Positions 4,277-44,089 of a stretch of DNA of 48,410 nucleotides are shown here, in pieces. Numbering within the stretch: position 1 is the stretch's first letter; every line of letters begins with the position of its first letter. The position numbers and the translations under genes are program-made. The DNA lies in the IMG/VR virus record IMGVR_UViG_2531839667_000010, positions 1 to 48,410 of that record; one strand, 5' to 3'. Below the pieces are notes generated by a model. The model had not been told where the DNA came from. It did not search any database and saw only the letters and a list, made by a program, of their open reading frames with translations. The DNA is from a virus. Its lineage: Duplodnaviria; Heunggongvirae; Uroviricota; Caudoviricetes.

Positions 4277-5599
4277 ATGAGCGAGATTGCACCAACGAGC
4301 CTGTTACACCCTCTGAAAGCTACCGTTCTGGATTTTCAGGAGGATGAGCACGACTATCAGTTCAAGGTTGAATACCCGGAGCCGACCTGCTGCCATGCCT
4401 GCGGTGCAGTGTCTGACATCATCCGCTTTAACAAAAAGCTGGTGAAGTACCGGGATGTTCCCATGCACGGGAAGCGCGTCACGCTCTGGGTCGTAACACG
4501 CCGTTATCAGTGCAAATCATGCAAAGGCACATTCACCCCGGCCATCCCCGAGATGGCCGAAGCCCACCGCATGACAAAGCGCTGCTATCAGTACATCATT
4601 AAACGTGCGCTGACCGGCACTAACGCCAGCGTCGCGCAAGATGTTGGCTTTGATGAGTCCGTCACCCGTGGGGTCATCAAGTCCTACTGCGAGCAAAAGG
4701 CGAAGACCTATAAGCCTGTGCTGCCGCGAGTGCTGGGCATTGATGAGCTGTACCTGAACAAAACCTTCCGCTGTGTCCTGACCAACATCGAGCAGGGAAC
4801 CATTATTGACATACTGGAATCCCGGCAAAGTAACGTCATCTACAACCGTCTGGCGCATATGGAAGGCCGTGAGAACGTGCAGATCGTCTGTCAGGATATG
4901 TGGAAGCCATACCGTGACGTTGCCAGCCAGCTATTCCCTAAAGCCAGCATCGTCGTTGACCGCTTCCATATCCAGCGCATGGCTAACGAGGCGATGGAAA
5001 TGCTGCGTAAGTCGCTCAAAAAGGATCTGACAGTACACCACCGACGGCAGCTTAAAGGCGACCGTAAGATGATGTTGATGCGTAAGCGTGACCTTAACCC
5101 TATGCAGCAGATGATTATCGAAACGTGGCTGGATCACTATCCTGAGTTGGGTCTGGCCTATCAGCTCAAGGAAGAGTTCTTTGATATCTGGCTGGCACAG
5201 ACTGAACCTGAGGCCAGAATGCGCTATCAGAACTGGCTGGCAAAGATACCCGAGCATCATAAAAAGCACTGGAAGCCGCTGATAACATCCATGACGAACT
5301 GGGAGAAAGAGATATTCGCCTACTTCGGCCCGGCCCAGCGGAAGACCAACGCCTTTACGGAATCCATCAACCGCAAGATGCGCGATCTGAACCGTGATTC
5401 GCGCGGAATGTCCTTTGAGATGTTCAGGGCTAAAACACTGTTCACTCTCAAGCATAAGTTCAGCAAGCCTAAACCAGTGAAAGAATCACCGTTCACGGTT
5501 GGCTATGTCACCGCTGGTTCGTGGGATCTGGATGATGAAATCCGGGACGATTACGGCGTATCTATCGACGCTATTCTGGAATCCAAAATCGGCGAATAA
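4277..5599 (+). CDS. ISL3-family transposase
   Basis: 440 aa; N-terminal zinc-finger/HTH pattern (CCHACG ... [10 protein letters not shown]) typical of ISL3 transposases; sits between ISL3-like terminal repeats with an 8-bp duplication. Confidence 0.75.
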
Positions 5600-5885: not shown

Positions 5886-6449
5886 TTATTTCGTTTGAAT
5901 GCCAGTAACAGGAAATCGTTTATATAGGGTTGATAGCCCAACGTTATAGATACGTGCAACATAACGCCGTGATTTCCCTGCCGCTATGAGCGCTCCCATC
6001 TGTTGCCACTGCTCGTCGCTAAACTTCGGTCTACGCCCACCAATCCGGCCTTTGGATCTGGCAATAGCCAAACCAGCTAAAGTTCGCTCGCTATTCAAAT
6101 CAGATTCATACTGCGCAGCAGAAAGAATATTACGGAAATTATAGCGACCACTTGCTGTTTTCAGGTCTACGCCATCTGTAATACTGCGGAAGTTGATACC
6201 CTTTTCCTGTAACTGCTGGAACATCAACAGCGCATGCAGAACGTTGCGGCCTATCCTGTCCAGCTTCCAGACCACCAGTTCATCCCCCGGCTGCATAGTG
6301 GCGATCAGCCGTTTTAGAACCGGCCGATTCGATTTCCTCCCGCTGGCATGCTCTTCAAAAATTTTCTCACAACCCGCTGACTTGAGCGCCGTTAGTTGCA
6401 ATTCAGTGTCCTGGTGGTTTGTTGATACTCGGGCATAACCGTAAATCAT
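5886..6449 (-). CDS. Serine recombinase / DNA invertase (Pin/Gin/Hin family)
   Basis: 187 aa from MIYGYARVSTNHQDTELQ (catalytic Ser region) with a C-terminal HTH; AGGAG Shine-Dalgarno. The listed 278-aa ORF is an upstream over-extension. Confidence 0.85.
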   Translation of the reverse strand: MIYGYARVSTNHQDTELQLTALKSAGCEKIFEEHASGRKSNRPVLKRLIATMQPGDELVVWKLDRIGRNVLHALLMFQQLQEKGINFRSITDGVDLKTASGRYNFRNILSAAQYESDLNSERTLAGLAIARSKGRIGGRRPKFSDEQWQQMGALIAAGKSRRYVARIYNVGLSTLYKRFPVTGIQTK

Positions 6450-6501
6450 GGGATTTCTCCTGTTATGAAAACAGGAGAAACGGCGAAGCATCACCAGATT
6501 T

Positions 6502-6972
6502 TTGATGGTTATAAAAAAGGTTGGTTTGGGAGAAGGCTCTGCATTACCTGTTGGTGTCCCTGTTCCGTGGCCTTCAGCTACGCCGCCAACAGGCTGGCTG
6601 AAATGCAATGGCGCTGCCTTTGATAAGGTTAAATATCCCCGTCTTGCTACAGCATATCCATCAGGGAAACTACCTGATCTCCGCGGTGAGTTTATTCGTG
6701 GCTGGGATGATGGGCGCAGCATTGATACAGGGCGTGCTTTATTGAGTATTCAGAGTGATGAAGTCAGAAAGCTCGCATTAAAATACTGGGGACCAGCTTC
6801 AAACAGTTCACCATCAAAAACATTTGCACTCAGCGACAGTGCCGGTGGCGGGTTGTACACGGATGGAATAAGTCAGGCAAGCGGTGGGATTATCAACGCT
6901 TTTCAGCTCCCTGGCGGTAACGAAACCCGCCCACGAAATGTTGCATTTAACTATATCGTGAGGGCTGCATAA
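6502..6972 (+). CDS. Alternative tail-fibre C-terminal cassette, currently in the silent orientation
   Basis: No ATG (the frame opens after TGA 6466-6468); carries the conserved tail-fibre C-terminal motif PWPSATPPTGWLKCNGAAF...DLRGEFIRGWDDGR; preceded by a crossover site that shares reading phase with the expressed fibre. Confidence 0.6.
   Translation: MMVIKKVGLGEGSALPVGVPVPWPSATPPTGWLKCNGAAFDKVKYPRLATAYPSGKLPDLRGEFIRGWDDGRSIDTGRALLSIQSDEVRKLALKYWGPASNSSPSKTFALSDSAGGGLYTDGISQASGGIINAFQLPGGNETRPRNVAFNYIVRAA
6509..6534. other. Invertase crossover site (hix/gix-like), left
   Basis: TTATAAAAAAGGTTGGTTTGGGAGAA; its reverse complement TTCTCCCAAACCAACCTTTTTTATAA resembles hix and shares 14 bp with the right site. 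Confidence 0.6.
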
Positions 6973-7574
6973 TGGATAATGCTGTATTAAATAGCGAGTT
7001 TATTGCCACGAAGGCGGGGAGTATTACCGTCTATAACTATGATAGTGAAACACGGGAATATATTTCCACGTCAACTGAATATCTTGCTGTGGGTGTCGGT
7101 ATTCCGGCATGTTCCTGTCTTGATGCACCTGGCATACATAAGGTTGGTTATGCAATCTGTCGTTCTGTGAATTTAAATTCATGGGAATATGTGCCAGACC
7201 ATCGCGGTGAAATCGTCTATAGCACCGAAACAGGAGAATCAAAAGAAATCACAGCTCCGGGTGATTACCCTGAAAATACAACCACTATCGCCCCTTTATC
7301 TCCATACGATAAATGGGATGGTGAGAAATGGGTGACCGATACTGAGGCACAGCATAGCGCCGCAGTAGACGCGGCAGAAGCACAGCGCCAGTCACTGATT
7401 GATGCTGCTATGGCTTCCATCAGTCTGATTCAACTGAAATTGCAGGCCGGACGGAAACTGACGCAGGCAGAAACAACCCGACTTAACGCCGTGCTGGATT
7501 ACACTGACGCGGTGACGGCAACAGATACCAGCACCGCGCCGGATGTCATCTGGCCTGAACTGCCGGCGGCGTAG
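6972..7574 (+). CDS. Tail fibre assembly protein (partner of the silent cassette)
   Basis: 200 aa; C-terminal ...LNAVLDYTDAVTATDTSTAPDVIWPELPAA pattern typical of Tfa chaperones; immediately follows the alternative fibre cassette. Confidence 0.7.
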   Translation: MDNAVLNSEFIATKAGSITVYNYDSETREYISTSTEYLAVGVGIPACSCLDAPGIHKVGYAICRSVNLNSWEYVPDHRGEIVYSTETGESKEITAPGDYPENTTTIAPLSPYDKWDGEKWVTDTEAQHSAAVDAAEAQRQSLIDAAMASISLIQLKLQAGRKLTQAETTRLNAVLDYTDAVTATDTSTAPDVIWPELPAA

Positions 7575-7998
7575 GCCATTTAATATCTGGCGCACCGGAA
7601 GTATCGACCAGTTCCAGTGCGTCCAGATAATCCAGCCACAGATTATATTGCGCCAGTTCCTCGCCTTTCAGACGACCAATAGCCGCTTTACCAGGCCATT
7701 GTTTACTGTTCATATAATCGTTGGCCTGATTAATTAGTAGCTGTCTTTCTGATTCAGTAATTTCAATAAGTTCTTCATGCGTAGGGGCAGGAATATCCGC
7801 CCACGCGGGCAGCCCATCACCTCCGGCAATACGGATTTTTCCTTGTGGCGGTTCAGCCATAAATTCACTGATAATATTTTGACTCACCTCCTTAGCATCT
7901 GATAAATCCCATCCCTCTGATTTATATTTATCAATCATATCCACAGGGAAAAAAGCATTATGCCTTGCGCTATAAACATATTCGTTCATATAAATCAT
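7546..7998 (-). CDS. Tail fibre assembly protein (expressed orientation)
   Basis: 150 aa; C-terminal ...LDYLDALELVDTSGAPDIKWPTPPAV Tfa motif; convergent with the other tfa, as in invertible G/C-segment systems. Confidence 0.7.
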   Translation of the reverse strand: MIYMNEYVYSARHNAFFPVDMIDKYKSEGWDLSDAKEVSQNIISEFMAEPPQGKIRIAGGDGLPAWADIPAPTHEELIEITESERQLLINQANDYMNSKQWPGKAAIGRLKGEELAQYNLWLDYLDALELVDTSGAPDIKWPTPPAVQAR

Positions 7999-31450: not shown

Positions 31451-31968
31451 GTCAACGCGCTTTCCTGGTCCCGTCGCTCAACCTGACCATAGCAGCCATT
31501 CTTCTGGCCTTTGGTTAGACGACAATCACGGCCACCGTCTTTAATCCACCAGCGGATTGCCTCGCATGCACCGATGCGGTCACCTGCGTTGATGCGCTTA
31601 TAGAAGGTCGATGGGAAGCATTTACCGGGGCCGATGTTATACGGGCAGAAGGATGCGATACCCACCTTCTGAGGCTCTGTCAGAGGCACTTTGATATTGC
31701 GATCAACCCAGGCTAATGCCTTATCGCGTTCAATAGCGTTAACCTTCCGGCATTGTTCCTCAGTGGCCGTCATGCCCTTAACAACACGCCTGCCATCGAT
31801 AACGGTCACGCCGTGACATAAAGACCAGACCCCACCCGGATCAACAACGGCCACCAGCGCATTGCCTTCTTTCTCGCTGATGAATTGGTCGAAAATGAGT
31901 GGAGCAGATGCCCCTGACGCGATTAGCGCCAGCACTGCTGCGCTGAGCTTTGCTTTGTTCGACATCAT
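31429..31968 (-). CDS. R: SAR-type endolysin (lysozyme)
   Basis: 179 aa; hydrophobic Ala/Gly-rich N-terminal segment (signal-arrest-release type) then a lysozyme-like domain; follows a 71-aa holin. Confidence 0.8.
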
Positions 31969-32180
31969 TCACCCCGCGCAGCTTTGCGGCGATCCGCTTT
32001 GATTTGGAAGTACAGACTCGTTAACCACGTCAGCAAACCAAACATGAGGCTACCGAGCACACCAATGGCCGCCCATTGAGATGGGGAGACTTTATCGAGG
32101 AGCTGAAGCAACCAGTATCCGGTCCCCCCTCCCGATGCGCCGTATGCTATACCCGTCGTGATTTTTTCCATTCGATACAT
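31965..32180 (-). CDS. S: Class II holin (pinholin, S21-like)
   Basis: 71 aa, two transmembrane segments, possible dual start (MYRMEK); resembles my recollection of phage 21 S. Confidence 0.8.
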
Positions 32181-32250
32181 GCTCTCACCTCGCTACGTTG
32201 CGGGTGTCCAGTTGAGGTAATAAAAAGGGCCGCGATAGCGACCCAAGCTT

Positions 32251-33303
32251 TTATTCCCCTGCCAGCTGCCTTACCTCACTTACCGTCTGGTTGAAACGTT
32301 CCTCTTCCAGTTCTACGCCGATAGCCTGGCGGCCCAGTTCAATGGCTGCTTTAACAGTTGATCCCGAGCCCATAAAGAAATCAGCTACCACATCGCCGGG
32401 CCTGCTGCTGGCGTTGATGATTTGCCGCAACATATCAGCGGGCTTTTCGCACGGGTGTTTGCCTGGATAGAACTGGACGGGTTTATGTGTCCAGACGTCT
32501 GTATAGGGCACGGCTACTGTCACAGAGAAATGCCGCCGAAGAGATTTGTACTCTTCCAGCAGATCAAGGTATTTCCGGTTCAACGAATGCCATGTGGCCA
32601 CCAGCTGGTGATGCGGTGCTTTGAGTTCAGAGGCGCGGTGCTTCTCAATGGCGATCTGAGTGAACAATTCCTGCAGCTTTTCGTAATCCTGCTCGTTTGG
32701 TAGTTGCCACTGACTGGTACCGAACCAGTGAGACGCCATATTTTTCTTTCCGGTAGCGTCAGCTATTTGCCTGGACGTGACCCCCAGTTCGGCTCGTGCA
32801 TCACGAAAGTAGGTGATTAACGGAGCCATGACGTGCTGTTTGACCTCGTTGCTTTTCTCAGCAAATCCGTCGCTTTTCGGCTTATATGGCCCCTGATAAT
32901 GCTCAGCGAAAAGGATGCGTTCCGTCGCGGGGAAGTAAGAGCGCAGGCTTTCTTTATTACAACCGTTCCAACGCCCTGATGGCTTCGCCCAGATAATGTG
33001 GTTCATGACGTTGAAGCGTTCACGCATCATGATCTCAATATCAGATGCCAGGCGATGCCCACAGAACAGGTAAAGGCTTCCGGCAGGTTTCAACACCCGC
33101 CAGAACTGGGCCAGACAGAGGTCCAGCCACTTAAGGTAATCTTCGTCCCCTTTCCACTGATTGTCCCAACCGTTAGGTTTCACCTTGAAGTAAGGCGGAT
33201 CGGTAACAATCAGGTCAATGGAATCATCAGGCAGGGACTGAATAAAATGCAGGCAATCAGCGTTGATTAAATCAACACTGTTTATTTTTACAGTATTTTT
33301 CAT
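32251..33303 (-). CDS. DNA methyltransferase (N6-adenine/N4-cytosine family, DPPY motif), orphan
   Basis: 350 aa with IVTDPPYF catalytic motif; no adjacent restriction endonuclease gene seen. Confidence 0.85.
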   Translation of the reverse strand: MKNTVKINSVDLINADCLHFIQSLPDDSIDLIVTDPPYFKVKPNGWDNQWKGDEDYLKWLDLCLAQFWRVLKPAGSLYLFCGHRLASDIEIMMRERFNVMNHIIWAKPSGRWNGCNKESLRSYFPATERILFAEHYQGPYKPKSDGFAEKSNEVKQHVMAPLITYFRDARAELGVTSRQIADATGKKNMASHWFGTSQWQLPNEQDYEKLQELFTQIAIEKHRASELKAPHHQLVATWHSLNRKYLDLLEEYKSLRRHFSVTVAVPYTDVWTHKPVQFYPGKHPCEKPADMLRQIINASSRPGDVVADFFMGSGSTVKAAIELGRQAIGVELEEERFNQTVSEVRQLAGE

Positions 33304-33453
33304 GGATCAGTAAGCGTAACTCTGGTAGGCTCACTCTGCTTTTGCGCTAAAGCAGTGGGCCGTGGTTCGCTTGTGACCAGTAAGCATGAGCGAATGGCTG
33401 GCAGGTGCTACCAACACCCACCAGCCGCCCATTTTCACAGCAGGAAACCGCCA

Positions 33454-33681
33454 TTACTGGCAGCGTCTGAATTTATTCCCGTACCCGCCGTTATCCTTCG
33501 CCAGACCCGCCAGAACTAACTGAGTCAGTATTAACTGGCACCGGGCTTCGCTTACTCCGGTAGTTCTCGTCATCATGCGTGGCGTTACCCACTTGTCAGC
33601 AGGTAAGAAATGAAGGACTGCTGCGGCGGTTTCTGTCATATCTTGCTGTTTTAGCATGTCTTTTTCCCTTCTGGTTAACAT
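33454..33681 (-). CDS. Hypothetical small protein, possible wHTH
   Basis: 75-aa ORF between the late terminator region and the methyltransferase. Confidence 0.35.
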   Translation of the reverse strand: MLTRREKDMLKQQDMTETAAAVLHFLPADKWVTPRMMTRTTGVSEARCQLILTQLVLAGLAKDNGGYGNKFRRCQ

Positions 33682-33759
33682 GACATACCAATAACTCTTG
33701 TCTAAAAAGCCAGCAAGATAAAAAGTCAGTATTCACGACTACCAGCGTGTTTACTGTAC

Positions 33760-33909
33760 TGCTCCAGGTTTACAGGTACAAAAAAACCGCTCAGTGGCGG
33801 GTTCTTAAATCTTATCAACGGTAGACATACAAAGCCCATCGTTGGGAAAATCTTATCCATATTTTTTGAAAAATGCAAGCATCATGTCGCCATCTTCGGC
33901 GAAAATCAT
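33760..33909 (-). promoter_or_regulatory. Late promoter region (pR'/qut analogue) with a short terminated leader
   Basis: Region immediately downstream of Q; weak hairpin followed by a U7 run on the minus strand (plus-strand aaaaaaaccgctcagtggcggg). Position-based inference. Confidence 0.35.
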
Positions 33910-34662
33910 TTATCTTGTCACTTTTCTCAATTGTGTCTCTGCATATGCTTCTTCCTGCCAGCACTTTGTAACCAGTTTATCAATGACATCTGCATATCCT
34001 TTGTACCACTGATAATCCGTCAGATCCGGTACCAGCTTCTGGACATGATGCCGCGCCAGTGTGGTTGGTAAACGGCTAAACCGGTTTCCATTGCAACGCC
34101 CACAAATCTTATAAACAGGCGTGCCATGAAGCCGGGTCCTTTTTTCATCCAGGACAATACCTTTACCCTTACACCCTCTGCACGCTGTGCTGACTTCTCC
34201 CTTACCATGACAATGCTGACATAGTTCCTTCACCCACTCTTCCTTGATAACAGATTCCCCGCTTCTGGAGTGTTTCACCACTTCGCGCAATACATTATGA
34301 AATCCAGTACCAGCACAATGCTCACAGCGAGCCTTACTTGCCGCAGACCTGGAATAATCAGCAAAGGCAAAATTCACAAGGTAAGGGATGATCTGTAACC
34401 GGGTTTCTTCACTCAATTTGTTCAATGTCGGGTTATCCAGTGCCATCGCGTAATTGAGCAGACCTTCAATCGCAAATTGAGGATCCTGAACACCAACTTT
34501 TGCCAGGAATAAGGCAAACCCAAGCGGTGCTTTCGACTGCACCATCCCCTGCGCAGCCATCACATCCGTAATCGTTAAACCACCTGAGCCTGTCGCCGGT
34601 GCGTCATCGCTCAATTTTGGAGATTTTGGGGAGTAATATTTTGGTAAGGCTTCAAGGTTCAT
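33910..34662 (-). CDS. Q: Late antiterminator Q (zinc-binding type)
   Basis: About 250 aa from MNLEALPKYY (GGAG Shine-Dalgarno); several CxxC pairs; the listed ORF extends 14 codons upstream. Confidence 0.8.
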   Translation of the reverse strand: MNLEALPKYYSPKSPKLSDDAPATGSGGLTITDVMAAQGMVQSKAPLGFALFLAKVGVQDPQFAIEGLLNYAMALDNPTLNKLSEETRLQIIPYLVNFAFADYSRSAASKARCEHCAGTGFHNVLREVVKHSRSGESVIKEEWVKELCQHCHGKGEVSTACRGCKGKGIVLDEKRTRLHGTPVYKICGRCNGNRFSRLPTTLARHHVQKLVPDLTDYQWYKGYADVIDKLVTKCWQEEAYAETQLRKVTR

Positions 34663-34675
34663 GCTCGTTCTCCAC

Positions 34676-35671
34676 TTACGCCAATACGCCAATTGCCAGC
34701 GCACGATCGATAAAACGAAATATCAGCTCCAGCTGAGAGCCATACTTCTCTTCAAATGCCACGGTATCCGCATGCAGCTCGTCGTGATGCTTTCTGCACA
34801 AAGGCAACACAAAGAGGTCATGCGCTTTTGTACCCATTCCACCCTGACCGTGGCCTATCAGGTGGTGGGGATCATCAGCAGGCTTTCCACAACATGCACA
34901 CGGCTGTGTCTTAACCCAGCGCGTGTACTTTTCATTAACCCAGCGGCGGCGTTTTGGGCGTAACATAAAAGACTCCGGCGACTCCGGATCCACTTTCAGC
35001 GCCAGCACCTTTTTCGCCTTATCCTGGATGATGCTGGTGGCAGGAACCGAAGGCACAAGGTCACTTTCCCGGGTGACAGACGGCACAACAGGCTTCGGTA
35101 ATCTCAGTGCCTTACGGGCTGCACTTTCCGGTAAGGCATCCGCCAGGTCATTACGAATCAGCCACCAGCACAGTTCCGGCATTGTCACGGCATGGTTATC
35201 ATCAAAACCGAGATCCAGACGGACTACAGACAACACCCAGCGGGCACAGTTATCCGTTGCCATTGATTCCAGCCGTTCCGTGAACTGATCGCGCAGCTGG
35301 TTATCGCAGTGCCAGCACAGACGGATTGCGCCCGGAGCGTGTCGCATTGTGGTCATGTTCTCGCTGTGCCAGTCGGAATGAGGCCACTGGCAGCCTTTTT
35401 CACGAAGTAACCAGCTTTCAAGACATTCCACGCCACCAGCACGACGGATCACTGCCTCATTGCGGAACACGGCCCTAACGGCAGGATCATCCGCCAGCGG
35501 TTGTGATGCCGCCGGAACGGCACCACTGGCGAAAGATGAATAACGTTCCGGCTCAGGCTCCAGCAGGACACGCCCCTGCATAAACAGGGGCATCAGCTCT
35601 GAACCTGGTCTGAACAATACAATCCCCATACGCGGGGCTATTTCAGGGGTCAGTAGTGCTCTCACGGTCAC
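34676..35671 (-). CDS. nin-region protein with C-terminal HNH/zinc-finger-like motif (DUF968/NinG-like)
   Basis: 331 aa; C-terminal ...CACCGKPADDPHHLIGHGQGGMGTKAHD...PLCRKHHDELH... Confidence 0.5.
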   Translation of the reverse strand: MTVRALLTPEIAPRMGIVLFRPGSELMPLFMQGRVLLEPEPERYSSFASGAVPAASQPLADDPAVRAVFRNEAVIRRAGGVECLESWLLREKGCQWPHSDWHSENMTTMRHAPGAIRLCWHCDNQLRDQFTERLESMATDNCARWVLSVVRLDLGFDDNHAVTMPELCWWLIRNDLADALPESAARKALRLPKPVVPSVTRESDLVPSVPATSIIQDKAKKVLALKVDPESPESFMLRPKRRRWVNEKYTRWVKTQPCACCGKPADDPHHLIGHGQGGMGTKAHDLFVLPLCRKHHDELHADTVAFEEKYGSQLELIFRFIDRALAIGVLA

Positions 35672-36501: not shown

Positions 36502-36891
36502 TCAGGCGGCTGCACCCGCCGTTTTCTCGTACTTACTGATAGTGATTTCGACCTTCCCTTCCGGGATAACCGGCCCCCACTCCACCAGCATTCTTTTCAC
36601 CTGGCTGTCGTCCACCCACACACCCGCGTGGGTCAGGGCGTCAAACAGCGCCTTGTTATAGTTGTCCAGATCGCGAAGCCGGTTATCCGGAGGAAACAAC
36701 ACGATCTCCACTGAAGCTGGTGCCGACGTTGGTTTCGGCAGACGACGTAACTGCTCAATGATGGCTGCACACGCTGCGCTCTGGAATTTTCGCCCCGCCG
36801 CGCTTATCAGGCTCTTACCTGCAAGCGCCCCTTTGTTGGGGTGTCGCCAGTACGTGTTCACGCTGGGCGGAAAAGGCAGTATTAGCTTCAT
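36502..36891 (-). CDS. rusA: Holliday-junction resolvase RusA
   Basis: 129 aa; MKLILPFPPSVNTYW... with RusA catalytic Asp residues. Confidence 0.9.
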   Translation of the reverse strand: MKLILPFPPSVNTYWRHPNKGALAGKSLISAAGRKFQSAACAAIIEQLRRLPKPTSAPASVEIVLFPPDNRLRDLDNYNKALFDALTHAGVWVDDSQVKRMLVEWGPVIPEGKVEITISKYEKTAGAAA

Positions 36892-37214
36892 ACTTTCAGG
36901 CCCCTCTCATGTAACCAGTGGGCTGCACGCAGCCTGGCGTTTGCCTCACCGGCAAGCAGTGCGCGGATAATCCCGACCGCCTCGCTGTCGTCGTCCTTCA
37001 CCGCGGTATGAAGCGTGATGCCCCGGGCCACGCCACGCTTTATCGTGATGACGCCTTTTTTCTCCAGTGCGCGAAGATGCTCCACCGCTGCATTCACTGA
37101 ACGGTATCCCAGCATGGTTGCCACCTCCTGATTGGTTGGCGGGAAGCCACGTTCTTTCTGATAAGAAATCAGCATATCCAGCACCTGCTGCTGGCATTGA
37201 GTTAACGTCGTCAT
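36888..37214 (-). CDS. LexA-type winged-helix DNA-binding protein (no protease domain)
   Basis: 108 aa; ...NQEVATMLGYRSVNAAVEHLRALEKKGVI... resembles the LexA N-terminal domain. Confidence 0.55.
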   Translation of the reverse strand: MTTLTQCQQQVLDMLISYQKERGFPPTNQEVATMLGYRSVNAAVEHLRALEKKGVITIKRGVARGITLHTAVKDDDSEAVGIIRALLAGEANARLRAAHWLHERGLKV

Positions 37215-37864
37215 GCCGCCATCTCCCTGACCAGTTTTTCTGCCTGCTGGCGAACCTGCGCCAGAAAGGCCTCACCACATGCCTCAAGTTCATCGCGCCC
37301 GATGTAGCTGATTGCCGGTCCCTTCCAGGTCTTGTCGAAAACAGCAATAGCACCAGCGAAGAAAGCGCCTGTCGGCACCTGCTTCTCATCCTTCGGGATA
37401 AACCAGGCAGGCAGTTCAAAACCAATACGCCCGCGAATAAAAGCAATATGATCTGCATCTTCCGGCCACCACACTTCGCTGGTGGCAGCTTTGATCAGGA
37501 AAACATAGCGCCCGCCTTTATCACGCATGGCACTGGCATGCTTCATGATGTAACGCATGCCGGTGATGTATTGCCCCTCATGCTGACTGGCGCGGCTGTA
37601 TGGGGGATTACCAAAGGCAGCACCTTTAAGCTCCGCAAGGCGTTCTGACCAGTCATGCGCCAGCGCGTTGTCTTCCGCCGTGTAATACGCAGCACATTTG
37701 GCGTTATCACCGTCAGTGAACAGATCCAGAACAAACGGGCCAAACAGGGTGTTAATTCCCCAGAAAATGTTGTCCGGCGTGCGCCACTGATCGCCCACTT
37801 CCTTCAGTTCATGGGCTGGTTTGTTCCGCAGTTCCGCCAGCGCCTGGCAATATTTATTACTCAT
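37211..37864 (-). CDS. Phage Dam-type N6-adenine DNA methyltransferase, orphan
   Basis: NPPY motif (GAAFGNPPYS); ATG 37862-37864 overlaps the upstream stop (TAATG); the listed ORF starts at a GTG at 37897. Confidence 0.8.
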   Translation of the reverse strand: MSNKYCQALAELRNKPAHELKEVGDQWRTPDNIFWGINTLFGPFVLDLFTDGDNAKCAAYYTAEDNALAHDWSERLAELKGAAFGNPPYSRASQHEGQYITGMRYIMKHASAMRDKGGRYVFLIKAATSEVWWPEDADHIAFIRGRIGFELPAWFIPKDEKQVPTGAFFAGAIAVFDKTWKGPAISYIGRDELEACGEAFLAQVRQQAEKLVREMAA

Positions 37865-38358
37865 TAAGCCCCCACGTAATTCCCTGAGAGATACCACTCT
37901 TCACCTGATGCAGCCCGCTTACTGCTTTTCCGTAAACACCGTTCACGACGCGCCAGAAAATTGTTTCGTTCTGGCTGGGAGTGGCTTTCACGGAATGCCG
38001 CCATCCACACCGTTGCAGCACGACGGTATAAGCCCCTCGACTCCAGTTCTTCCGCCTGGCGGGTCAGGCACAAAATCACCCGCGGGTCGTTAGTGCCGAC
38101 ATAGAAATTGCGCACAGGTCTGGTTTCACGAACTGGTTGTGGTTCCGGATCCTGCGCTCTCTCAGTCAGGCGCTGGAAATGTCTGTGTGTATCTCCTTCA
38201 CAACGGTGAGCCACACGCCCACTCTGACGTAACTTGCTTGCTGACTGCAGAACGCGCTGCCGTGAGTAACCTGCAAAAGCATCCGCAATGTCTCCGGAAG
38301 TACACCCCGGATGGGCTTCAATGAATTTCTGAACTTCATTCAAAAGACTCATGATCAC
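37864..38358 (-). CDS. Hypothetical regulator (PerC/ANR-like C-terminal region)
   Basis: 164 aa; motif ...LESRGLYRRAATVWMAAF... resembles PerC/ANR regulators as I recall; coupled to the O-like gene (ATGA overlap). Confidence 0.4.
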   Translation of the reverse strand: MIMSLLNEVQKFIEAHPGCTSGDIADAFAGYSRQRVLQSASKLRQSGRVAHRCEGDTHRHFQRLTERAQDPEPQPVRETRPVRNFYVGTNDPRVILCLTRQAEELESRGLYRRAATVWMAAFRESHSQPERNNFLARRERCLRKSSKRAASGEEWYLSGNYVGA

Positions 38359-39347
38359 CCCCTGAATCCTGCCGGGATCTGGCTGTAGTCCACATTGTCG
38401 TAACTGGCTTTGAAGTACGGGTCTTCGCGTTTTTCTGTGTACGTGCTGACGGACGGCGATAAGCGCAGGGAAAGCTCATCCCATTTTTCCCGCAGCTTCG
38501 ACGGGCTGAGCACGTTACGGCACCAGAACGGATCGCGGCTGACGCGGCTGTACATCTCGCAGATTTGTTTGTGAGTACGCCCATCCTGTACACACATCAG
38601 GCGAATTTCGTTTGCCCAGGCTGTCCAGTTCGGTTCTTTAGGACGTACCACTTCGCCGTCACATTCGGCGGCCTGCTCGTACAGAGCGATGATTTTTTTC
38701 CAGAGCCACTGTGCGCAGGTCAAATCATCCTGCGTTCCCCACTGGCGCTTTTTAGGGCTGAATACAACCGCATCAGGATGGCGAGTTAAAAAATCCTGTT
38801 CAGCCATCTGCGTGTCCGGTTGCGAAGCGTCCGGACGAGAAGAGGTTTTATTCTCTGTAGTAATCTCTGTTGTATTCTCTGTAAGATCATTGGGCCATTT
38901 TGACCCGATGACAGCGTGTCGTTTTGAACCAATGGATCGTGTCATTTTGCGCTCATCCATCAGGTCACTTTGACCCGATGGAGAGGTGCATTTTGACCTG
39001 ATGGATTCGTTCACTTTGACCTCTTCTAAAAGCTCACTTTCATAGTTGATCGTGTAGAAGTTGGTCATGTCACGCTTCGATTTATTGAGTTGCTCGCGAC
39101 GCAAAACCCCAAGTGATTTCAGGCTTGCAAATGTGCGTTTCAGAGTGGACTCTGACCAGAACGGAAACTGCTCCAGCCACTGTTCTGTCGTGTTATAAAC
39201 CCAGCGAATTCCGCCATGCTCAGTGCCTGAATTCGTTTCATTCAGCCAGTAATGAAGCTGCTGCAACACAATTGCCTCATTCAGACCAATACGGCATGCA
39301 AGATCACGATTTATCACAATGGGCTGGGATGTCATTAACAGGCTCAT
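38355..39347 (-). CDS. Replication initiator (lambda O-like) containing the origin iterons
   Basis: 330 aa with wHTH-like N-terminus; the gene body carries six 23-bp-spaced iterons, as lambda ori lies within O. Confidence 0.7.
   Translation of the reverse strand: MSLLMTSQPIVINRDLACRIGLNEAIVLQQLHYWLNETNSGTEHGGIRWVYNTTEQWLEQFPFWSESTLKRTFASLKSLGVLRREQLNKSKRDMTNFYTINYESELLEEVKVNESIRSKCTSPSGQSDLMDERKMTRSIGSKRHAVIGSKWPNDLTENTTEITTENKTSSRPDASQPDTQMAEQDFLTRHPDAVVFSPKKRQWGTQDDLTCAQWLWKKIIALYEQAAECDGEVVRPKEPNWTAWANEIRLMCVQDGRTHKQICEMYSRVSRDPFWCRNVLSPSKLREKWDELSLRLSPSVSTYTEKREDPYFKASYDNVDYSQIPAGFRG
38893..39030. repeat. Origin of replication iterons
   Basis: Six copies of about YTTTGACCYGATGGA starting at 38899, 38922, 38945, 38968, 38991, 39014 (constant 23-bp phase), followed by a moderately AT-rich stretch. 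Confidence 0.65.
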
Positions 39348-43171: not shown

Positions 43172-44089
43172 ATGAACAATCCGTTTTTCAAAAATATGTT
43201 GGTGTATCGCATTAGTCGCGATTTCACCATCAACCAGGAAGAGCTGGAACAGCAGCTTGAACTATTTCGCTTCACTCCATGCGGTAGCCAGGATATGGCA
43301 AAAACCGGTTGGGTATCACCACTTGGTCAGCTGTCAGATCGCTTGCATCACACTGTCAATAATCAAGTGTTGTTGGTTATTCGCCGGGAAGAAAAAATAC
43401 TGCCATCTCCTGTCATTGCTGAAGAACTGCGCAAGCGTGTGTCGCGTCTGGAATCCGATCAGGGGCGTCGCCTCAAAAAAACTGAGAAAGATTCGCTGCG
43501 TGATGAAGTGTTGCACTCCCTGCTTCCTCGGGCGTTCTCCAAAAACTCGACTGTTAGTTTGTGGATCAACGTCACCGACGGTCTGATCATGGTTGATGCA
43601 GCCAGCGCTAAACGTGCCGAAGACTCACTGGCCCTGCTTCGTAAAACTCTCGGTTCTCTCCCGGTGGTACCGCTGACTATGGAAACGCCGATCTAACTAA
43701 CTATGACCGAATGGGTTCGTTCCGGTAGTGCGCCTGCTGGCTTTGGCCTGGGTGATGAAGCCGAACTGAAAGCTATTCTTGAAGATGGCGGTATTGGACG
43801 CTTTAAAAAACAGACTCTGGTCAGTGACGAAATTCATGTGCATCTGGAAGCTGGCAAAGTAGTTACAAAGCTGTCTATCGACTGGCAACAGCGCATTCAG
43901 TTCGTTCTTTGCGATGACGGCAGCATCAAACGCCTTAAGTTCTCTAATGAGATTACAGAACAAAACGACGATATCGACCGTGAGGATGCGGCTCAGCGGT
44001 TCGACGCTGACTTTGTTCTGATGACCGGCGAGCTTATCTCTCTCATTAACGGATTAACAACCTCTCTCGGCGGCGAAGCCAAGCGATAA
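43172..44089 (+). pseudogene. rdgC: RdgC-like recombination-associated protein, interrupted by one in-frame TAA
   Basis: Listed ORFs 43172..43696 and 43703..44089 are in the same frame, separated only by TAA at 43694-43696; together they resemble full-length RdgC as I recall ([11 protein letters not shown]..., ...[19 protein letters not shown]...). Confidence 0.75.

Follow-up and report, generated by a model that had tools for sequence, protein, structure and literature searches.

Two solitary adenine methyltransferases in an E. coli lambdoid prophage: an M.EcoGII-type gene behind a conserved structured leader RNA, and a Dam-family gene in the nin region

Why would a single prophage carry two DNA methyltransferases, and how might each of them be expressed? 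This question is raised by a dusA-integrated lambdoid prophage whose left junction (dusA and the integrase gene) lies inside the window, that is, the whole stretch of 48,410 nucleotides analyzed here. An earlier note on this DNA had listed a 350-aa DPPY methyltransferase between Q and the holin gene, a 75-aa open reading frame (ORF) upstream of it, and a Dam-type NPPY methyltransferase in the nin region. All three ORFs are where that note had placed them, in the following setting:

31965..32180, minus strand: P21-type class II holin, the first lysis gene (Pfam, E 3e-31)
32251..33303, minus strand: 350-aa beta-class N6-adenine DNA methyltransferase of the M.EcoGII family (PF01555 and identity to M.EcoGII)
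33454..33681, minus strand: small winged-helix ORF, phrog_331 (75 aa as listed; PHROG E 3.1e-26)
33910..34704, minus strand: late antiterminator Q with a DnaJ-type zinc-finger stretch (PF03589; Pfam E 1.3e-53)
36888..37214, minus strand: LexA-DNA-binding-domain protein of the nin operon, its start overlapping the Dam stop (Pfam)
37211..37897, minus strand: phage Dam-family N6-adenine methyltransferase, NPPY (PF05869, TIGR01712)
37864..38358, minus strand: PerC-like regulator of the nin operon, directly upstream of Dam (Pfam)

In the direction of transcription, the 350-aa methylase gene comes after Q, a terminator and the small winged-helix ORF, and it is followed in turn by a second terminator and the holin gene; no tRNAs were found in this Q-to-holin gap. 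The same order is present in phages Ayreon, mEp460, SfV and cdtI, and in Salmonella. The Dam-type gene is flanked by the PerC-like gene and the LexA-DNA-binding-domain gene. The two methylases belong to separate transcription units, the Q-dependent late operon and the early-right (nin) operon, which agrees with the previous suggestion that they are expressed at different stages. Both are solitary adenine methyltransferases of known phage families and are ordinary for E. coli prophages.

The 350-aa protein matches PF01555 across residues 29-340 (E 8.8e-45), and its motifs, DPPY at residues 35-38 and FMGSG at 310-314, follow the beta-class order. When aligned over its full length with M.EcoGII, an adenine methyltransferase characterized as non-specific, for which we used the reference sequence in Table S1 of PMC11551740, it is identical at 272 of 348 residues (78%), with just two one-residue gaps, even though the alignment spans the recognition domain and the charged interdomain linker. 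Identity to each of the reconstructed ancestors Anc291 and Anc289 is higher, at 85%. Moreover, the gene resembles M.EcoGII and M.EcoGI of E. coli O104:H4 C227-11 (Murray et al. 2018, PMC5778455) in its motif order, in the length of the product (349-350 aa), in residing within a lambdoid prophage, in belonging to the same large E. coli prophage gene family, and in being solitary. On the basis of this full-length similarity, the 350-aa gene is a further prophage copy of the M.EcoGII family. Matches to it are found in 1317 of 5426 complete E. coli genomes, about a quarter. Each of the reconstructed ancestors was active on DNA as well as RNA, and methylation by M.EcoGII, Anc291 and SUPREM showed no sequence motif (PMC11551740). 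By homology, the most likely activity of the enzyme described here is adenine methylation with almost no dependence on sequence context.

The second methylase scores 155.7 bits against PF05869 (E 1.2e-45; cut-off 28.1) and 255.3 bits against the TIGR01712 equivalog model (cut-off 97.05), and it carries the (D/N)PPY motif as GNPPYS at residues 96-101 of the 228-aa translation. That translation opens at 37897; the probable start is the ATG at 37864, which gives 217 aa and is supported by the PADLOC model, whose alignment begins at residue 12. The protein therefore shares with the phage Dam family its family models, its NPPY motif and its solitary state. T1 Dam and HP1 Dam, two members of this family, are GATC enzymes, and from such family precedent we would guess that the target is probably GATC-like. 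The characterized M.EcoVT2Dam of VT2-Sakai (orf32), which is GATC-specific, is likewise encoded in a lambdoid nin region, but it has only 31% identity to the Dam-type enzyme of the window, too little for its specificity to be carried over; the window's enzyme is about 40 residues longer. Versions that are 98-99.6% identical occur in phages 1720a-02 and 720R4. Both methylases together are already present in these sequenced phages: 720R4 carries an M.EcoGII-type gene as well, and 1720a-02 has a very similar M.EcoGII-type methylase according to Murray et al. (PMC5778455). Among related viral contigs, a Dam gene is located at most 4 kb upstream in 30 of 80. In some database records, this Dam subfamily is fused to a PAPS-reductase-like domain (phrog_33262).

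Neither methylase has the adjacent cognate endonuclease that characterizes a Type II restriction-modification system. Pfam and PADLOC revealed no restriction endonuclease domain in any accessory ORF of the window, and the annotation of strain 97.3 lists none for its closely related prophage; in this sense, the two methyltransferases stand without a cognate endonuclease in the prophage, as the earlier note had maintained. A DUF968/HNHc_6 gene adjoins neither of them, and such a gene also occurs next to Q in prophages that lack this methylase. The anti-restriction reading proposed for the pair is the accepted rationale for solitary phage methylases, and we infer that it applies here.

The small ORF upstream of the 350-aa gene probably starts at the ATG at 33657, giving 67 aa, because PGAP calls this start in a relative with 99.7% identity and the majority of homologues share it. 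Classification with HMMs assigns it to phrog_331, with no Pfam or NCBIfam match. Its AF2 model (pLDDT 84.2) consists of three helices and a beta wing, and Foldseek searches with this model returned generic winged-helix matches only. The homologues contain an invariant helix, RCQLILTQLxxAG, and bear DprA_WH matches or TrmB-family names. As judged from this model, the protein is a winged helix and not an Xre-type controller protein: it has no Xre/HTH_3 domain, and there is no endonuclease gene for a controller (C) protein to control. The ORF is tightly linked to the methylase gene in E. coli and Salmonella. It is missing from 27 of 80 M.EcoGII-family methylase loci (about a third), and thus it cannot be essential. 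The earlier interpretation was sound regarding the solitary pair, the separate units and the winged helix, found no support regarding a controller-like regulator, and missed both the membership in the M.EcoGII family and the leader RNA described below.

Three terminators or terminator-like hairpins surround the methylase gene:

33780..33801, minus strand: tR'-like intrinsic terminator downstream of Q, CCCGCCACTGAGCGG then T7 (read from the sequence)
33447..33464, minus strand: hairpin P0 (GCUGCC-AGUAAU-GGCGGU) followed by a U-rich run, terminator-like in sequence
32227..32244, minus strand: intrinsic terminator between methylase and holin (scan: 7-bp stem with 6 GC pairs, then a T run)

The counterparts of the first and the last of these sites are annotated as terminators in Ayreon. 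The tR'-like stem of the window is one pair shorter than that of Ayreon and failed the 5-pair rule of our scan. As for P0, its loop holds the UAA stop of the small ORF. Of 61 distinct relatives, 52 have a perfect hairpin at this fixed position, which in 39 cases is followed by at least four U within 8 nt.

Between P0 and the methylase start codon we found a structured leader RNA, delineated with alignments A2, A4 and A7, whose elements are as follows:

33304..33431, minus strand: structured leader RNA of about 130 nt, abutting the methylase start
33431-33427/33360-33356, minus strand: helix P1 (covariation-supported fold)
33426-33415/33407-33396, minus strand: helix P2 (covariation-supported fold)
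33394-33385/33375-33366, minus strand: helix P3 (covariation-supported fold)
33353-33349/33342-33338, minus strand: helix P4 (covariation-supported fold)
33413-33408/33328-33323, minus strand: tentative pseudoknot (78% paired, double changes in 2 of 6 pairs)

The architecture is that of a three-way junction and a hairpin, with a pseudoknot that is tentative and weakly supported. RNAalifold reported compensatory changes in 13 of 23 leader pairs. Moreover, 23 of 38 pairs were changed on both sides, as compared to 9.8 +/- 1.9 in shuffled alignments (none of 500 shuffles reached 23), and 88.9% of the cells were paired versus 27-51% when the partners were slid. The minimum free energy fold of the single sequence (z = -2.7) differs from this structure and was discarded in favor of covariation. 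A covariance model matches the window at 33298-33445 with 151 bits. Of 79 species-level loci that could be evaluated, 60 contain a single match to this model, in every case directly next to the methylase start; with this model the leader is not detectable in the other 19, which comprise the Xenorhabdus loci plus two more. The converse search, starting from the RNA, yielded 120 loci, 113 of them with the methylase downstream. Six of the remaining seven are ended by the contig end, and the seventh, L251, was rejected as a leader without a methylase, being a chance match to a 21-nt pattern. The linkage between the leader and the methylase gene is therefore strict. In nucleotide identity, the leader is on a par with the coding sequence next to it or surpasses it, and in this prophage the leader matches the common allele at 100% identity, whereas the 3' half of the methylase gene has diverged. 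The methylase start codon has no canonical Shine-Dalgarno sequence. One idea is that a conserved UGAUC before the AUG pairs either with GRUCA in the loop of P3 or with the 3' end of 16S rRNA; UGAUC and GRUCA are both too invariant to leave any covariation signal.

The leader is apparently without earlier description. Searches of Rfam with cmscan gave no match in the window region at E <= 1, nor any over the leader in six divergent loci. We also rejected its identification with a known prophage sRNA, since AgvB, AsxR and the Pas sRNAs are located elsewhere and are shorter; the anti-sRNAs AgvB and AsxR measure 51-60 nt and lie 3' of moron coding sequence. In the literature searched, two motif strings of the leader had no literal match and no link of M.EcoGII to a leader or riboswitch was found, and the M.EcoGII papers searched make no mention of the small ORF and leader upstream of that gene.

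Lambdoid phages are mosaics, and the stretch of about 130 nt lies at a mosaic boundary, so one could regard it as a recombination-promoting DNA "linker" between phage modules. Alternatively, it could be a small protein-coding gene, as a conserved AUG opens an ORF of 33 codons in the window. Such explanations appear quite unlikely to us, given that compensatory double changes are far above both the shuffled and the slid controls, that the G-U pairs fit the sense strand only, and that the stretch is conserved into Yersinia, Hafnia and Serratia with unrelated flanks. A coding function was rejected because in 24 of 61 sequences the ORF is cut short after 7 codons, and because the reading frames vary; a leader peptide, MGGWWVL, was likewise discarded, as its tandem Trp codons fall within the covarying helix P2 and are lost in divergent sequences. 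The structured leader thus remains our reading of this stretch. A further alternative concerns the substrate of the enzyme, which could physiologically be RNA (host rRNA or phage mRNA), the small winged-helix protein acting as a specificity subunit. M.EcoGII methylates RNA in vitro (PMC5778455; PMC11551740), the small ORF shows the tight linkage mentioned above, and there is a precedent in M.EcoPA8orf6770P of Stx phages, which acts on 16S rRNA and whose substrate choice is modulated by PNB-2, a small winged-helix protein encoded upstream and co-transcribed (Gong et al. 2023, PMC10810198). However, the activity of M.EcoGII alone on DNA greatly exceeds its activity on RNA (Table S3, PMC11551740), and a third of the loci dispense with the small ORF. 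In addition, M.EcoPA8orf6770P is encoded near the left end of the Stx phages and needs its partner, unlike M.EcoGII, which is active alone; it is of the MT-A70 type, has the motif DPPW and hence belongs to a different family, for which reason we also rejected its equation with the 350-aa enzyme. We regard an RNA substrate as very improbable and retain DNA as the likely one.

Even with DNA as its substrate, the 350-aa enzyme might have become sequence-specific through a diverged recognition domain and protect against one or a few restriction systems. Its recognition domain and C-terminal half differ from those of M.EcoGII in being a diverged mosaic segment, with 60-80% nucleotide identity to the common E. 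coli allele and, within the recognition domain, 69% amino acid identity to M.EcoGII. Furthermore, the allele is rare, found at 99% identity or more in only 4 of 1323 E. coli records. Altered specificity is therefore possible, and non-specificity stands as a prediction for this allele. Nevertheless, we deem a specific enzyme unlikely, since only two one-residue gaps separate it from M.EcoGII across the recognition domain and linker, it is closer to the tested Anc291 and Anc289 than M.EcoGII is to some ancestors, and M.PflMI, the nearest site-specific relative, is just 27% identical to M.EcoGII. It is hardly credible, on the other hand, that one or both methylases represent the modification half of a system with its endonuclease elsewhere in the genome. 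PADLOC assigns both to Type II methyltransferase models and the window represents no more than 48 kb of the genome, but the prophage contains no endonuclease anywhere, solitary phage enzymes are known from both families (PMC5778455; PMC6602927), and a non-specific methylase has no meaningful cognate endonuclease.

The explanation that we favor, with a probability of about 0.75, combines a late, insulated M.EcoGII-type methylase with an earlier-acting Dam-family enzyme of the nin operon. The M.EcoGII gene is prophage-borne, silent in the lysogen and harmful under constitutive expression (PMC5778455), and homologues are silent in ST131 (PMC4659465) and O111 strains (PMC6602927). An anti-restriction role was called likely by the authors of M.EcoGII. 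Being the first large gene of the Q-dependent late operon, the 350-aa methylase would be made only during lytic growth. It may then hyper-methylate progeny DNA before packaging, and DNA modified in this way would blunt m6A-sensitive restriction in the next host. An enzyme of this type harms the cell, and its gene seems to be insulated at several levels, by the tR'-like terminator, then by P0 and then by the folded leader, which could set or gate translation of the methylase. This arrangement suggests that the silencing of this toxic late gene is layered. As an optional accessory, the 67-aa winged-helix protein could bind the leader or DNA, or its translation could melt P0. The Dam-family enzyme, presumably translationally coupled within the early-right operon, would act earlier, on replicating phage DNA. 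That the leader constitutes a new cis-regulatory RNA class, composed of a three-way junction, a hairpin and a pseudoknot and gating the translation of a methylase that is toxic and non-specific, is a narrower proposal to which we give slightly less than even odds; such an RNA might sense a signal, for instance SAM/SAH, the methylase or the winged-helix protein encoded upstream.

A comparable arrangement is reportedly found in the com-mom operon of phage Mu (work of Hattman, and of Wulczyn and Kahmann), where a toxic adenine-modifying enzyme is said to be expressed late, with a small protein gene immediately upstream and a structured mRNA leader that occludes or controls the mom start codon. 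Mom is reportedly not a methyltransferase, and Com is said to be a zinc-finger protein. The module of small ORF, leader and methylase may work like com-mom, by analogy only: the two share no sequence relation, the small protein is a winged helix here, and the small ORF is often absent. The enzymes Hia5, Hin1523 and M.HaeV are phage-borne too, with little or no specificity and a presumed broad anti-restriction role (Drozdz et al. 2012, as cited in PMC5778455). In the account of Murray et al. (PMC5778455), they differ from the M.EcoGII type in being alpha-class enzymes with the reverse motif order. They are also unrelated in sequence and are located at the mom position of Mu-like prophages.

M.EcoGII is a widely used tool enzyme that is still described as having no known role or regulation in nature. 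The conserved module of terminator hairpin, structured leader and methylase, often with a small winged-helix ORF, provides a testable handle on how a genome-wide methylase stays off in lysogens and comes on late. In this module, the leader is a candidate new RNA motif. If the proposed gating is true, the leader, together with the hairpin P0 that holds a stop codon in its loop, would explain the silence of such enzymes in lysogens.

The two methyltransferases lie in a lambdoid prophage that extends from about 1.6 kb to the right end of the window, reads on the minus strand and has its integration site adjoining dusA.

Genes of the prophage and its integration site that bear on the two methyltransferases
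541-1578: Dus
1667-2764: integrase
38355-39347, minus strand: replication gene
37864-38358, minus strand: PerC-like regulator
37211-37897, minus strand: Dam-family methyltransferase (NPPY)
36888-37214, minus strand: LexA-DNA-binding-domain protein
Between the LexA-DNA-binding-domain gene and Q, minus strand: RusA, a KilA-N protein and a DUF968/HNHc_6 protein
33910-34704, minus strand: antiterminator Q
33454-33681, minus strand: small ORF, 75 aa
32251-33303, minus strand: PF01555 methyltransferase, 350 aa (DPPY)
31965-32180, minus strand: P21-type holin, followed by lysozyme and Rz/Rz1

Both enzymes named in the earlier note carry their expected motif: DPPY for the 350-aa enzyme, NPPY for the Dam-type one. 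The description of both as orphans also stands. Pfam and PADLOC scans of the accessory ORFs of the whole window detected no restriction endonuclease-like gene, PADLOC recognised only the two methyltransferases, and no restriction endonuclease is annotated in the closely related prophage of E. coli O68:H12 strain 97.3. The 264-aa Q protein (33910-34704, minus strand) has two Antiterm profile matches and a DnaJ-type CXXCXGXG zinc-finger stretch; strain 97.3 carries a different, shorter Q at the same place, and hence the Q module has been exchanged between otherwise near-identical prophages. An ISL3-family transposase gene (DDE_Tnp_ISL3 and zinc ribbon; 4277-5599, plus strand), inserted in the left arm beside antirepressor-like ORFs, is absent from the strain 97.3 prophage, consistent with a left-end coordinate offset of about 1.5 kb. 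Two ORFs, 43172-43696 and 43703-44089 (plus strand), align with the RdgC profile in its N-terminal (2-168) and C-terminal (174-298) parts, respectively, and are probably a nonsense or frameshift pseudogene; rdgC is a single intact 918-nt gene in the relative. Finally, a serine invertase (Resolvase and HTH_7; 5886-6722, minus strand) lies beside two tail-fibre assembly genes in opposite orientations (6972-7574, plus; 7546-7998, minus), which looks like a Gin/Cin-type invertible host-range switch.

The 350-aa protein is 78% identical to M.EcoGII (272/348, full length, two single-residue gaps), the sequence of which was machine-read, with a few obvious reading errors, from Supplementary Table S1 of Ochiai et al. 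2024 (PMC11551740). Identity to the reconstructed ancestors Anc291 and Anc289 reaches 85%. M.EcoGII itself shares only 27% identity with M.PflMI, its nearest relative of defined site specificity. These values place the predicted enzyme well inside the non-specific clade, with the caveat that its recognition domain is only 69% identical to that of M.EcoGII at the amino-acid level. M.EcoGII is a characterised prophage enzyme of E. coli O104:H4 that methylates adenine without sequence specificity; it is silent in the lysogen, and its constitutive expression yields slow-growing, unstable clones (PMC5778455). M.EcoGII, Anc291 and SUPREM showed no sequence motif, and every ancestor tested methylated both DNA and RNA (PMC11551740).

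Judged by nucleotide identity, the methylase allele is a mosaic. Up to about nt 300 the gene hardly differs from the common E. coli allele, and the same holds for the leader and the small ORF; the remainder, encoding the recognition domain and the C-terminal part, is only 60-80% identical. The allele is rare, with at least 99% identity in 4 of 1323 matching E. coli records. Within the methylase coding sequence, 20-48 nt from its beginning (33255-33283, minus-strand coding), a 14-nt near-palindrome, AAACAGTGTTGATT / AATCAACGCTGATT, could fold into a hairpin near the start codon. The region itself is common: 1317 of 5426 complete E. coli genomes match 32200-33750 at the DNA level, Q, small ORF, methylase and holin follow one another in this order in phages Ayreon, mEp460, SfV, cdtI and vB_EcoM-720R4, and unannotated records of Stx2c phages match most of it. 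Moreover, M.EcoGI/GII homologues were already given as silent prophage genes in the ST131 (PMC4659465) and O111 (PMC6602927) methylome papers.

The Dam-type protein scores 255 bits (cut-off, 97) against the NCBIfam equivalog 'phage N-6-adenine-methyltransferase' and also matches PF05869. Its translation most likely begins with the ATG at 37864, in agreement with the earlier note, since the PADLOC model alignment begins at residue 12, and both ends of the gene overlap its neighbours within the nin operon. The characterised M.EcoVT2Dam (VT2-Sakai orf32) also belongs to PF05869 but is only 31% identical, so that GATC specificity would be a guess from family precedent. Proteins 98-99.6% identical occur in phages vB_EcoM-720R4, which has an M.EcoGII-type gene as well, and 1720a-02, for which Murray et al. 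(PMC5778455) mention a very similar methylase. A Dam gene also lies within the 4-kb upstream flank in 30 of 80 related viral contigs. By these occurrences, two solitary methylases in one lambdoid phage are a recurring arrangement. The two methylases as first described are ordinary, already known prophage cargo and further members of known families.

The small ORF most likely starts at 33657 and encodes 67 aa, because this start is used in homologues and in the PGAP annotation of a 99.7% identical relative. It belongs to phrog_331, a PHROG of unknown function, and has no match in Pfam, NCBIfam or PADLOC. Its homologues are confined to enterobacterial prophages, and their third helix, RCQLILTQLxxAG, stays unchanged even where overall identity falls to 50%. 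The earlier guess of a winged helix is borne out by weak DprA_WH matches or 'TrmB family' names among these homologues and by an AlphaFold model built on their alignment (mean pLDDT 84), with the helix-helix-helix-wing order. Foldseek searches of the PDB with this model returned nothing beyond generic winged-helix matches (Z-alpha, IclR, MarR, TrmB), all with E of 2.5e-3 or more. The suggested controller-like role does not hold: the model is not that of an Xre-type controller protein, and the prophage has no endonuclease to control. An M.EcoGII-family gene lies ~150 nt downstream in all 80 IMG/VR loci collected via the small ORF, and likewise behind a Salmonella homologue of 53% identity. When loci were collected via the methylase (80 GTDB species), the small ORF was present in only 53. 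It is therefore an accessory, not a requirement.

Between the two genes lies a structured leader RNA (33304-33431, minus strand) that covaries strongly and is strictly linked to M.EcoGII-family genes. In an alignment of the window with Salmonella and Erwinia loci, the 150-nt spacer shows higher conservation than the small-ORF coding sequence, with compensatory changes visible by eye; in comparisons with distant relatives, the leader is at least as similar in nucleotide sequence as the coding sequence next to it. RNAalifold on 42 sequences from different species gave a junction, in which P1 encloses P2 and P3, followed by hairpin P4, with compensatory changes at 13 of 23 pairs. Among 61 distinct sequences, 88.9% of cells were paired, vs 27-51% with partners slid by 1-3 columns, and 23 of 38 pairs showed changes on both sides (9.8 +/- 1.9 in shuffles). 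No measure attained its observed value in any of 500 shuffles. A pseudoknot that joins the P2 loop (GUAG) to a CUAY tail behind P4, paired in 78%, is possible but weakly supported.

Two covariance models were built. The second matched the window, Salmonella and Erwinia loci and 60 of 79 evaluable species-level loci, exactly once per locus and with the match always reaching up to the methylase start; no match was obtained in most Xenorhabdus loci or in two further ones, and the leader has diverged in Photorhabdus. Starting from the RNA, a search of IMG/VR gave 120 loci, with the methylase directly next in 113, a contig end intervening in 6 and one chance match. Coding analysis of the conserved region ruled out a protein-coding stretch, and the element is not a short prophage anti-sRNA or Pas sRNA; over the leader, neither the window (E <= 1) nor six divergent loci matched Rfam. 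A degraded prophage remnant in Erwinia sp. P7711 (L085, 4211-4420), flanked by T6SS and toxin genes, retains the small ORF, the leader (130 bits) and apparent first methylase residues, with no methylase gene called downstream. The M.EcoGII-family gene of a Hafnia psychrotolerans prophage is closely followed by a Sib antitoxin RNA (RF00113, 105 bits; L143, 4282-4428).

P1 is preceded, at a distance of about 10 nt, by P0, a GC-rich, terminator-like hairpin (33464-33447) with a U-rich run behind it. Among relatives P0 keeps its position but not its sequence: 52 of the 61 distinct sequences have a perfect hairpin there, and in 39 of these at least four of the eight bases that follow are U. In loci that have the small ORF, the stop codon of this ORF sits within the P0 loop, so that a ribosome finishing the ORF would probably melt the hairpin. 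A tR'-like terminator, annotated as a terminator in Ayreon, lies upstream of the small ORF, and another terminator comes after the methylase. The methylase start has no canonical Shine-Dalgarno sequence; a nearly invariant UGAUCYAUG precedes it and could pair weakly with the GGAUCA contained in the 16S 3' end.

Alongside the observed family membership, gene order and absence of an endonuclease, we infer the following course. The Dam-type enzyme would be produced earlier, and the M.EcoGII-type enzyme would be transcribed only once Q lets RNA polymerase pass tR' and P0, its translation being set or gated by the folded leader. It may then broadly methylate progeny DNA before packaging, which would shield this DNA widely from m6A-sensitive restriction but expose it to m6A-dependent nucleases. 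The closest known functional analogy to this module, a resemblance only, is com-mom of phage Mu, in which a toxic late enzyme that modifies DNA comes with a structured leader and a small protein encoded upstream. The small winged-helix partner of a phage methyltransferase described by Gong et al. (PMC10810198) is a second precedent, from a different enzyme family. No mention of the leader element turned up in the papers searched. The leader RNA and its terminator-hairpin context appear undescribed, and they are the part of this locus worth following up.
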